Sequence record: AF466696.1
Direction: 5' to 3' (one strand)
DNA length: 3,128 bases
From: Escherichia phage Mu
The notes under the pieces: generated by a model
Databases searched by the model: none
What the model was told of the DNA's origin: nothing
Seen by the model: the letters and a program-made list of their open reading frames with translations, nothing else
Position numbers and translations under genes: made by a program
Shown here: piece by piece, positions 1-3,128 of the stretch
Layout: the number at the start of each line of letters is the position of its first letter
Position numbering within the stretch: the first letter of the stretch is position 1

Positions 1-40
1 TTATCCAAAACTCGGTTTACAGGAAACGGTAAATCAGGCT
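1..40. repeat. Left terminal inverted repeat; nt 1..25 is a Gin/Pin/Cin-type crossover site that is 1 bp short (TTATCCAAAAC-TC-GGTTTACAGGAA)
   Basis: Identical to the reverse complement of 3088..3128 except for one missing C in the outer half-site. The site has internal dyad symmetry (TTATCCAAAACC versus reverse complement TTCCTGTAAACC) around a central TC dinucleotide, as in hix/gix sites as I recall them. Confidence 0.85.
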
Positions 41-1019
41 AGGAACGCCGTGCAAAAGAATGGCGATACCTTGTCCGGTGGGCTTACTTTTGAAAACGAC
101 TCAATCCTTGCCTGGATTCGAAATACTGACTGGGCAAAGATTGGATTTAAAAATGATGCCGACAGCGACACTGATTCATACATGTGGTTTGAAACAGGCG
201 ACAACGGCAATGAATATTTCAAATGGAGAAGCAAACAAAGCACCACAACAAAAGACCTGATGAATCTTAAATGGGATGCTTTGTCTGTTCTTGTCAATGC
301 CATTGTAAATGGCGAAGTCATATCAAAATCAGCAAACGGCCTCCGTATTGCTTATGGTAATTACGGATTCTTTATTCGTAATGATGGTTCAAATACATAC
401 TTCATGTTGACAAACTCCGGTGACAACATGGGGACTTATAACGGATTAAGGCCATTATGGATTAATAACGCTACTGGCGCTGTTTCGATGGGGCGTGGTC
501 TCAATGTTTCAGGGGATACACTTTCACACCGTTTTGCTATTAACAGCAGTAATGGTATGTGGATTCAGATGCGCGATAACAACGCTATCTTTGGGAAAAA
601 TATAGTTAACACTGATAGCGCTCAGGCGTTGCTTCGCCAGAATCACGCCGACCGCAAATTTATGATTGGCGGTCTGGGAAATAAGCAATTTGGCATCTAC
701 ATGATTAATAACTCAAGGACAGCCAATGGCACCGATGGTCAGGCGTACATGGATAATAACGGAAACTGGTTATGCGGTGCTCAGGTCATTCCGGGAAATT
801 ACGCCAACTTTGACTCCCGCTACGTGCGTGACGTTCGGCTGGGAACTCAGTCACTGACTGGCGGCTTGTCTCGTGATTACAAGGCGACATCCGGTCATGT
901 TATTACAGGTTTTCATACCAATGGCGACTGGGAAATGCAGGGGAGGGGATGACAAAGTTTATATCCGTCCGGTTCAGAAGAATATCAATGGTACCTGGTA
1001 TAATGTAGCGAGCGCCTGA
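2..1019 (+). CDS. stf: Side tail fibre protein, variable C-terminal (receptor-binding) module A; 5'-partial (constant part lies upstream of the window), with an apparent frameshift near the 3' end
   Basis: The frame is open from nt 2 through the left crossover site ([33 protein letters not shown]...) to TGA 950..952, 317 codons; the ORF-track entry 50..952 is the GTG-initiated part of it. Composition is Gly/Asn/Thr/Ser-rich, typical of fibre distal domains. A conserved fibre tail [23 protein letters not shown] is encoded 948..1019 in another frame and ends 2 nt before the tfa ATG, so the body is cut off at 952. Confidence 0.8.
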
Positions 1020-1021
1020 TT

Positions 1022-1552
1022 ATGATGCATCTGAAAAACATTAAGTCAGAAAATCCAAAAACTAAAGAGCAATATCAGCTAACAAAGAATTTTGATGTTA
1101 TCTGGTTATGGTCCGAAGACGGGAAAAACTGGTATGAAGAAGTAAATAACTTTCAGGACGACACCATAAAGATTGTATGCCACGAAAATAATATTATTGT
1201 TGCCATAACCAAAGATGCCTCTACGCTTAATCCCGAAGGCTTTAGCGTCGTTGAAGATTCCAGATATAACAGCCAACCGCCGCGCTGATGATTCATGAAA
1301 GTAAATGTTTAATGATGGGAGCTGTAATTAAACGGATTTATACGGCAGACGAACAGCAACAACGAGCCGAATCACAAAAGGCCGCATTGCTTTCCGAAGC
1401 TGAATCAGTCATCCAGCCGCTGGAACGCGCTGTCAGGCTGAATATGGCGACGGATGAAGAACACGCACGACTGGGAGTCATGGGAACGCTACAGTGTTCT
1501 GGTCAGCCGTGTGGATACGGCAAATCCCGAATGGCCACAAAAGCCTGAATAA
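1022..1552 (+). pseudogene. tfa: Tail fibre assembly protein (Tfa/U family) A, apparently disrupted by three frame changes
   Basis: ORF 1022..1288 begins [24 protein letters not shown]...DGKNWYEE...NPEG, which resembles the Tfa N-terminus of E. coli cryptic prophages (TfaE-like, from memory). The middle of the protein (..[50 protein letters not shown]) is in the frame of ORF 1288..1548. The expected C-terminus [26 protein letters not shown] is back in the first frame and ends at TAA 1550..1552. Frame changes fall at about 1253..1261, 1288..1330 and 1471..1480. Confidence 0.75.
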
Positions 1553-1557
1553 AAATT

Positions 1558-1577
1558 AAGGCCCGATAGCGGGCCTT
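1558..1577. terminator. Probable bidirectional factor-independent terminator hairpin between the convergent tfa genes
   Basis: AAGGCCCG-ATAG-CGGGCCTT forms a perfect 8-bp stem with a 4-nt loop. On the - strand it is followed by a T-run (complement of AAAAATTAA at 1551..1559); on the + strand it is followed by a weaker CTCTCATTCT tract. It sits 5 nt after the tfa-A stop and 3 nt after the tfa-B stop. Confidence 0.5.
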
Positions 1578-1580
1578 CTC

Positions 1581-2112
1581 TCATTCTGGTTGTTCTGGAA
1601 ACGTTACTGGCAGGCTGGAGGTGTCTGTGGATTCGACCTTCTGCGCGTAGAACATCCACTCTGTTAATTTTTGTTTATTCTCGTCGGAAATGATGCCCAG
1701 CCGTAGCCTGTGAGTCCCATAGCTGTGTTTTATCCCTGACGAACTGTAGCAGGCTTTGCTTTTCATTTTCCGCTTGTTGCCTCTGCTCTTCCTCGGTATA
1801 AGTTCGCTTTATCACTACACCATCTTTGAAACATCCATTTACCCGAAATATCAGCCCGGCGATATTGCTGTAATATCAGGAAACCTCAACGACGTTTGCG
1901 CCTTCTGGATTAATTGCTGAAACATCCTTTTCAATACAAATAATAACGCCGTTGTGGTCAGACCATTTTCAACGTATCAAGCTGAAAGTTCTTTTGTTCC
2001 TCATACCAGTTTTTCCCATCCCCTGTATAAAGCCATTTGATGTTAAATTGTTTCGTTAGCTGGTATTGCTCTTTTGTTTTAAGGTTGCCAGCAGTAATAT
2101 TTTTTAAATCAT
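1581..2112 (-). pseudogene. tfa: Tail fibre assembly protein (Tfa/U family) B, disrupted by multiple small indels
   Basis: The ATG at 2112..2110 sits 2 nt after the stf-B stop but is followed immediately by an in-frame stop (ATG ATT TAA), consistent with 1 nt lost from an ATG CAT TTA AAA AAT start. Tfa segments are spread over several frames: [50 protein letters not shown] (ORF 1958..2185), then DHNGVIICIEKDVSAINPEGANVVEVS*, then FKDGVVIKRTYTEEEQRQQAENEKQSLLQFVRDKTQ, then RLGIISDENKQKLTEWMFYAQKVESTDTSSLPVTFPEQPE* (ORF 1581..1766). These are homologous to tfa-A on the + strand. Confidence 0.75.
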
Positions 2113-2114
2113 AA

Positions 2115-3126
2115 TTAAATACTCCCCGCGTTATACCACGTTCCATTAATGCAATACTGAATTGGCCTTGCCTGAATTGTATCAATTAATTCATCACGGT
2201 TTCCGTTACTGAACCCGTAACGACATAACCTGACCTGTCAGACCAGCCGGGACCATTCCATGTCTGAACAGATGACAGACCGCCAAGACGAATACCTGTA
2301 ATAAACCTTGAGTTACATTCTGCCTGCGTATATGCACCAACATCTCCCGCTGATGGCTTACGTGTTGTGGTGTAAATTTCTGACCAGTCAGCTTCGAATC
2401 CGTAACCATCACGCGCTGAACGATAAAAAATACCGCCGTTCCTGTAATTCACACGGCTGTACGGCAGGGCAACTCCCCGTATTCATATTGAAGTGGAGGA
2501 TTAATGTCGGCAGGGCAACTCCCCGTATTCATATTGAAGTGGAGGATTAATGTCGATGCGCCACCAATATTTGCGTTATAGACCCCGCTATTCCAGTTCC
2601 AGCCAACAGCTTTATCATTTCCGACAGTGCTTCCTGTTTGTCCTAAAGCAAATGCAGGCTGCTGGTTTTTCGTGTTGTAGTCTCGTCGCCAGCCAGGAGC
2701 ATAAGCATCACCATGATTAATATAAGTGAATTGAGCGTTAGTGATTCCGCCGCCGCTGGACGTACTCGGCGTAGTAACGCGTATGGTCATTGCGCCGCGA
2801 GTGCCAATAACTTCCACCACAGCACCTGCATGACAAATATTTCCGCAACCTGTATCTGTAATGACCTTATTGTTTGCATAAGCCCATGAGCCTTTGCACA
2901 TCCAGTAAGGATGGTTAAATGCCCCCTGACTCTCCAGCCACGAAATAAATTGTGCGGTTGTCCAGACCTGACTATCGCCACCAATATTCAGCCATGCGCT
3001 ATATGCGCGACAGGCCCCAATATTTTTGGTGAAGGTATCTTTTCCTGGAATATCTGCGCCGTTCTGGTTTTGCTGTAATGCGCCAGAAGCCTGATTTACC
3101 GTTTCCTGTAAACCGAGGTTTTGGAT
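2115..3126 (-). pseudogene. stf: Side tail fibre protein, variable C-terminal module B; 5'-partial on the - strand (would join the upstream constant part after inversion), disrupted by a 46-bp tandem duplication and frame changes
   Basis: On the - strand the frame is open from 3126 through the right crossover site ([81 protein letters not shown]..., continuing as ORF 2449..2901) to TGA at 2449..2451, 226 codons. Coding continues in a second frame as ORF 2186..2452 (NYRNGGIFYRSARDGYGFEADW...SGYVVTGSVTETVMN*). The conserved fibre tail ..[23 protein letters not shown] is in a third frame, ending with TAA at 2115..2117. Confidence 0.8.
2462..2555. repeat. Perfect direct tandem duplication, 2 x 46 bp (units 2464..2509 and 2510..2555) plus 2 flanking matching nt, inside stf-B
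   Basis: GCAGGGCAACTCCCCGTATTCATATTGAAGTGGAGGATTAATGTCG occurs twice back to back with 100% identity. On the - strand the two copies are read in different frames (..TLILHFNMNTGSCPA then DINPPLQYEYGELPC), and the frame stops at 2449 shortly after. Confidence 0.95.
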
Positions 3127-3128
3127 AA
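3088..3128. repeat. Right terminal inverted repeat; nt 3103..3128 is a full-length 26-bp crossover site (TTCCTGTAAACC-GA-GGTTTTGGATAA)
   Basis: Reverse complement is TTATCCAAAACCTCGGTTTACAGGAAACGGTAAATCAGGCT, matching nt 1..40 with one extra C. It shows the 12-2-12 half-site architecture typical of serine DNA invertase sites. Confidence 0.85.

Follow-up and report, generated by a model that had tools for sequence, protein, structure and literature searches.

Frame breaks in both tail-fibre genes of a phage Mu G-segment sequence are most likely record-specific defects

The invertible segment and its genes

The window, by which we mean the whole 3128-nt stretch of DNA analysed here, matches positions 31954..35037 of phage Mu (NC_000929 / AF083977) in megablast with 98.6% identity over 100% of its length. 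The Mu copies in E. coli W, LY180, KO11FL, S17-1, B-766 and other strains match it equally well. The Mu annotation names this stretch the invertible G segment; the inverted repeats mark its limits, and immediately past the right one lies the invertase gene. By tblastn, Mu S, U, U' and S' fall on the window in the Mu order and orientation. The + strand encodes Sv and U, the - strand encodes U' and Sv', and all four lie between the Gin inverted repeats (Table 1). Judged by its sequence, we identify the window as a free-standing copy of the phage Mu invertible G segment, and we assign the two fibre genes, stf-A and stf-B in the first-pass annotation, to Mu S and Mu S', respectively.

The genes form two convergent sets, Sv-U and U'-Sv', each composed of the variable part of a fibre and a Caudo_TAP chaperone. 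The Mu proteins match the Pfam families Gp34_trimer, gp37_C and Caudo_TAP; neither the short tail peptide nor the 88-aa middle fragment of the window falls within any Pfam family. Mu and all relatives examined have unbroken frames for S, U, U' and S', and each of the window genes is split over two to four frames (by tblastn, two for S, three for S' and several for U and U').

The window begins and finishes with inverted repeats, TTATCCAAAAC(C)TCGGTTTACAGGAAACGGTAAA. These flanking repeats of ~34 bp carry the gix crossover sites, and their arms at 7..40 and 3088..3121 are 97% complementary. The left gix is without one C beside the central crossover dinucleotide (AAAAC-TCGG versus AAAACCTCGG). 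Window 31..40 reads AAATCAGGCT versus AAACAGGGCT in Mu, with a match to the right repeat that is longer by 7 nt and an Arg-to-Gln change in S. Inversion mediated by Gin decides between the expression of S/U and that of S'/U' and so sets the host range (PMC4406740). In this scheme the Gin recombinase inverts the 3 kb cassette between the 34-bp repeats, which links the constant N-terminal part of the fibre, located outside the window, either to Sv and U or to Sv' and U', with a switch of the host range.

Two further elements lie within the cassette. The hairpin between U and U' has 8 bp, is G+C-rich and is flanked by T-rich sequence; it is probably a bidirectional terminator, and D108 is so annotated at this place. 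An 80-nt inverted repeat (1194..1273 versus 1867..1946) with 70% complementarity is also present; it is no more than the homologous N-terminal regions of U and U' placed face to face.

Thus named, the locus shares with the Mu G segment its gene order, orientation and flanking inverted repeats, and its S and S' proteins are identical to those of Mu save for private differences. Unlike Mu, the window has ~15 indels, a 46-nt duplication, nonsense changes and a left gix without one base. The cassettes of D108, SfMu, P1 (C segment / Cin), P7, D6 and Mu-like E. coli prophages and plasmids have the same architecture and an almost identical S' tail. However, they are 89-93% identical and are not the same element, their frames are all intact, and their S variable parts diverge from that of Mu before the motif RPxQK.INGTWYN.

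Table 1. Positions of genes, repeats and lesions within the window
Feature	Position	Strand	Remark
Left inverted repeat, Gin crossover site gixL	1..40	+	C missing at 10/11 versus Mu and versus the right repeat of the window
stf-A, variable part of Mu tail fibre S, body frame	2..952	+	ends ..GDWEMQGRG* at premature TGA 950..952
stf-A tail, next frame	939..1019	+	tblastn with Mu S
stf-A lesion	940..943	+	GGGG versus GGG in Mu; one extra G shifts the tail by +1
U, tail-fibre assembly chaperone	1022..1552	+	fragmented: insertions at 1254, 1317, 1473; nonsense changes at 1296, 1303-1304
G+C-rich hairpin, terminator-like, between convergent U and U'	1558..1577	.	D108 terminators annotated at the same place
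U', chaperone of the alternative fibre	1581..2112	-	insertions at 1707, 1829, 1864, 1881; 2-nt deletion at 1959, 4-nt deletion at 2107
stf-B (Mu S') conserved C-terminal tail, shifted frame	2115..2206	-	private T>I at 2176
stf-B middle piece	2186..2455	-	S' residues 216-298 100% identical to Mu; past the lesion ..TETVMN* (stop 2186..2188)
stf-B lesion	2208..2208	-	single A where every other sequence has AA; causes the frame break
stf-B proximal piece	2455..3126	-	S' residues about 7-214, third frame (tblastn)
Perfect 46-nt tandem duplication in S'	2462..2553	-	with AA loss at 2456/2457; absent from Mu
Right inverted repeat, gixR	3088..3128	-	identical to Mu

The two frame breaks and the intact homologues

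The first-pass annotation described stf-B as a fibre body that stops in one frame and a conserved tail that continues in another, and this picture is reproduced here. The body frame stops at 2186..2188 (- strand ORF 2186..2452, ending ..SGYVVTGSVTETVMN*), and the tail proceeds in another frame of the - strand to TAA 2115..2117. The tail is also conserved as proposed: it is equal to the C-terminus of S' in Mu and in its relatives, save for the single substitution T>I at window 2176. Both frames are open across 2186..2237 (52 nt), therefore the lesion had to be within that span. The break had been placed inside 2115..2200, which is wrong: the one-base loss sits at window 2208. In the alignment with Mu and the relatives the coding strand reads GTAAC there, versus GTTAAC in the others, and the + strand reads GTTAC, versus GTTAAC.

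Loss of a G from the GGG run, which gives ..TGFSNG.., was considered as another position of the lesion and is ruled out by the alignments, as the loss falls in GTTAAC and the true reading is ..TGSVNG... We note that GTTAAC is a HpaI site, present in Mu and all relatives and destroyed by the lesion (window 2205..2209). The 46-nt duplication together with the AA loss forms the second frame break of stf-B, and its junction was found neither in IMG/VR nor in the GTDB representative genomes.

In stf-A, tblastn aligns S residues 170-480 with 11..943 (99% identity), and both frames are open across the junction for 95 nt. One base missing at 2208 accounts for the stf-B break and one extra G in 940..943 for that of stf-A. 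In real Mu, S' forms one uninterrupted reading frame.

Comparison with intact homologues bears this out, with one-frame read-through in six of six annotated relatives and 79 of 79 IMG/VR contigs. At the stf-B junction Mu, D108, P1, SfMu, an E. coli O111 prophage and plasmid pla2 carry the extra base and a single frame; they read ..SGYVVTGSVN(G/S).. and then the tail with an (I/V) variant, all in one frame. The junction pattern used for IMG/VR accepted either state, with or without the T; the T is present in all 79 contigs, and all those long enough reach the stop in the tail frame. The same junction pattern had zero matches in either state in the GTDB representative genomes, which is uninformative for the junction.

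Every E. coli record with the stf-A or the stf-B junction likewise reads through in one frame. For stf-B there are 657 such records in 5,426 complete genomes, the best of them matching at 97.3% (73 nt versus the 72-nt query), a value that reflects a single gap and, in addition, the private change at 2176. Had any of the 657 shared the gap, it would have scored above 97.3%, thus none does. The extra G of stf-A is absent from all 11 E. coli records with the Mu-specific junction in the same 5,426 genomes. The stf-A junction pattern had zero matches in IMG/VR, where the S variable part of Mu itself is rare. Mu has a single frame at this place, and five relatives with diverged S variable parts keep SGH..(T/S)G...RP(I/V)QK.INGTWYN in one frame, so the tail is conserved and normally contiguous with the body.

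The first-pass annotation had counted a corrected sequence with one continuous frame as refuting its reading. Such a sequence exists in the Mu reference genome and in the protein chains of PDB 5YVQ and 8JU3. The deposited chains are continuous through the tails, with 504 aa for S (5YVQ, 9KI1) and 488 aa for S' (8JU3); PMC11821841 refers to these entries as fibres gp49 and gp52 of Mu. The 5YVQ entry includes the chaperone's N-terminal domain as well, which attaches to the distal portion of the fibre (PMC9608196), therefore the tail region belongs to the folded, chaperone-dependent tip.

The breaks of the two genes had been placed at equivalent positions, and this is only partly the case. They are near-equivalent and lie ~six aligned codons apart: in the alignment of the S and S' proteins the stf-B lesion is at V|N of ..GSVNG.., and the stf-A lesion is at Q|G of ..EMQGG.., some six codons later. 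The opposite direction of the shifts is confirmed, with +1 base in stf-A and -1 base in stf-B. The coincidence of the positions, flagged as worth checking, is unremarkable, because at ~15 indels per 3128 nt the chance that one falls no more than 18 nt to either side of a given equivalent position is ~0.16, or ~16%. As the first-pass annotation argued, independent indels are favoured over a shared programmed frameshift, since one lesion is a 1-nt insertion, the other is a 1-nt deletion and each is private to this sequence.

Frameshift signals at the junctions

In principle the breaks could be programmed, with the ribosomes shifting by -1 in S' and by +1 in S and thus joining the fibre body to the conserved tail. 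We give this reading almost no credence. The overlap of open frames at each junction (52 nt in stf-B, 95 nt in stf-A) agrees with it, as does G_GGU_UCA within the stf-B overlap. The stf-A junction has GGG_AGG with a rare Arg codon, and a +1 slip there would restore the protein sequence of Mu. However, no canonical X_XXY_YYZ heptamer and no downstream structure above the shuffled controls accompany the junctions. A slippery heptamer XXXYYYZ is absent from all phases of the 52-nt stf-B overlap. The candidate GGGTTCA was rejected, as it is not X_XXY_YYZ under the strict test. The 90-nt folds around or downstream of each junction are no stabler than their shuffles (z = +0.39 for stf-B and +0.68 for stf-A).

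More decisive than the absent signals is that the two-frame layout occurs in no homologue examined: in 0 of 6 annotated relatives, 0 of 79 IMG/VR contigs, and 0 of 657 (stf-B) and 0 of 11 (stf-A) E. coli records. Programmed shifting would also require opposite shifts at the two sites, and ~13 further indels in the window are beyond rescue by frameshifting. In the programmed frameshifts of phage tail genes, such as that of the lambda G/GT tail assembly chaperone pair, the sites are conserved across relatives and carry a slippery heptamer. The window resembles such systems only superficially, in that a protein seems to run on in a second frame; unlike them, it has neither conservation in relatives nor a slippery heptamer.

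A related proposal takes the window as correctly sequenced DNA of a true Mu variant, in which slippage at GGG_AGG and G_GGU_UCA restores full-length S and S'. If it were true, translational recoding would act on both of the alternative tail fibres; we regard it as scarcely credible.

Private differences and the origin of the breaks

The base-by-base alignment of the window with Mu has 37 differing sites, both lesions among them. The two lesions belong to a set of ~15 private indels and about 25 private substitutions, by which all four genes are broken. The coding substitutions include 25 non-synonymous (5 of them nonsense) versus 8 synonymous changes, which is roughly the unselected ratio, and almost none of the private substitutions is common to any of five relatives. 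Single-base insertions outnumber deletions, and most single-base indels sit in short homopolymers. The 4-nt deletion of U' at 2107 falls in the second and third codons. On the + strand there are 11 G>A versus 2 C>T substitutions (binomial p = 0.022), and this strand bias suggests either errors of a single-strand read or a G-specific mutagen. Outside the private differences, the window and reference Mu agree at all sites. Of the independent Mu copies, those in W and B-766 match the reference at every site and that in S17-1 departs from it at 1. An exact look-up of the products of the broken ORFs returned none among ~15 billion proteins, and a look-up of contigs encoding such a product was likewise empty.

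Some differences of the window may be genuine strain variation: positions 36 and 989, and perhaps 887, agree with the relatives and not with Mu. Position 887 (Mu 32841, S codon 462) is C (Pro) in reference Mu, T (Ser) in S17-1 and A (Thr) in the window, D108 and P1. It is the sole difference between S17-1 and the reference across the whole G segment. Lying immediately ahead of the conserved SGHVITG motif, it may represent a true polymorphism or a site that affects host range.

We consider it quite probable that the frame break is a record-specific defect, which most likely arose as an error of sequence determination or assembly and involves no frameshifting mechanism. The two breaks are among ~15 private indels across all four genes, which points to poor sequence quality and not to biology. 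Both fibre and chaperone sets are broken in a sequence that is otherwise exactly Mu and ends at the repeats, and from this we infer errors in preference to mutation of the source DNA. A phage with both sets disrupted would have no host that it could infect. With manual chemical-sequencing gels, G read as A on one strand and bases doubled in short runs are typical. We suggest that the window may stem from an early gel-read, single-strand record of the G segment; the literature yielded nothing of use on such an older record or on a resequencing of it.

Alternatively, the lesions could be real and the window a defective copy of Mu, either the remains of a prophage in decay or a laboratory derivative after heavy mutagenesis, with S, U, U' and S' as pseudogenes. 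We find this unlikely, albeit a number of observations agree with it. Four of the four genes are broken, and the substitutions look unselected, as in a dead prophage. Short homopolymers, where most of the indels sit, are also where true slippage mutations arise, and a chemical mutagen could yield a strong G>A bias. However, no such copy is present in the 5,426 complete E. coli genomes, 50,697 phage records, 72,556 plasmids, IMG/VR or the GTDB representatives. The agreement of all non-private sites with reference Mu, together with the 0-1 differences among independent Mu copies, argues against a long separate history. Bacterial pseudogenes usually show a deletional bias, opposite to the excess of insertions in the window. 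Finally, the window ends exactly at the two inverted repeats, like a record of targeted sequencing and not like a fragment of a genome.

Taken by sequence comparison, the break is thus most likely an ordinary record-specific defect in a well-known locus and not a real feature. It matters solely as quality control, in that the window should be checked against the Mu reference before any biology is inferred from it. The same caution holds for every frame break, truncated ORF and odd repeat of the window, among them the break in stf-A, the fragmentation of U and U' and the duplicated 46 nt. The switching of fibres by Gin, with C-terminal tails that are part of one polypeptide, is long established, and the structures of both fibres have been solved.
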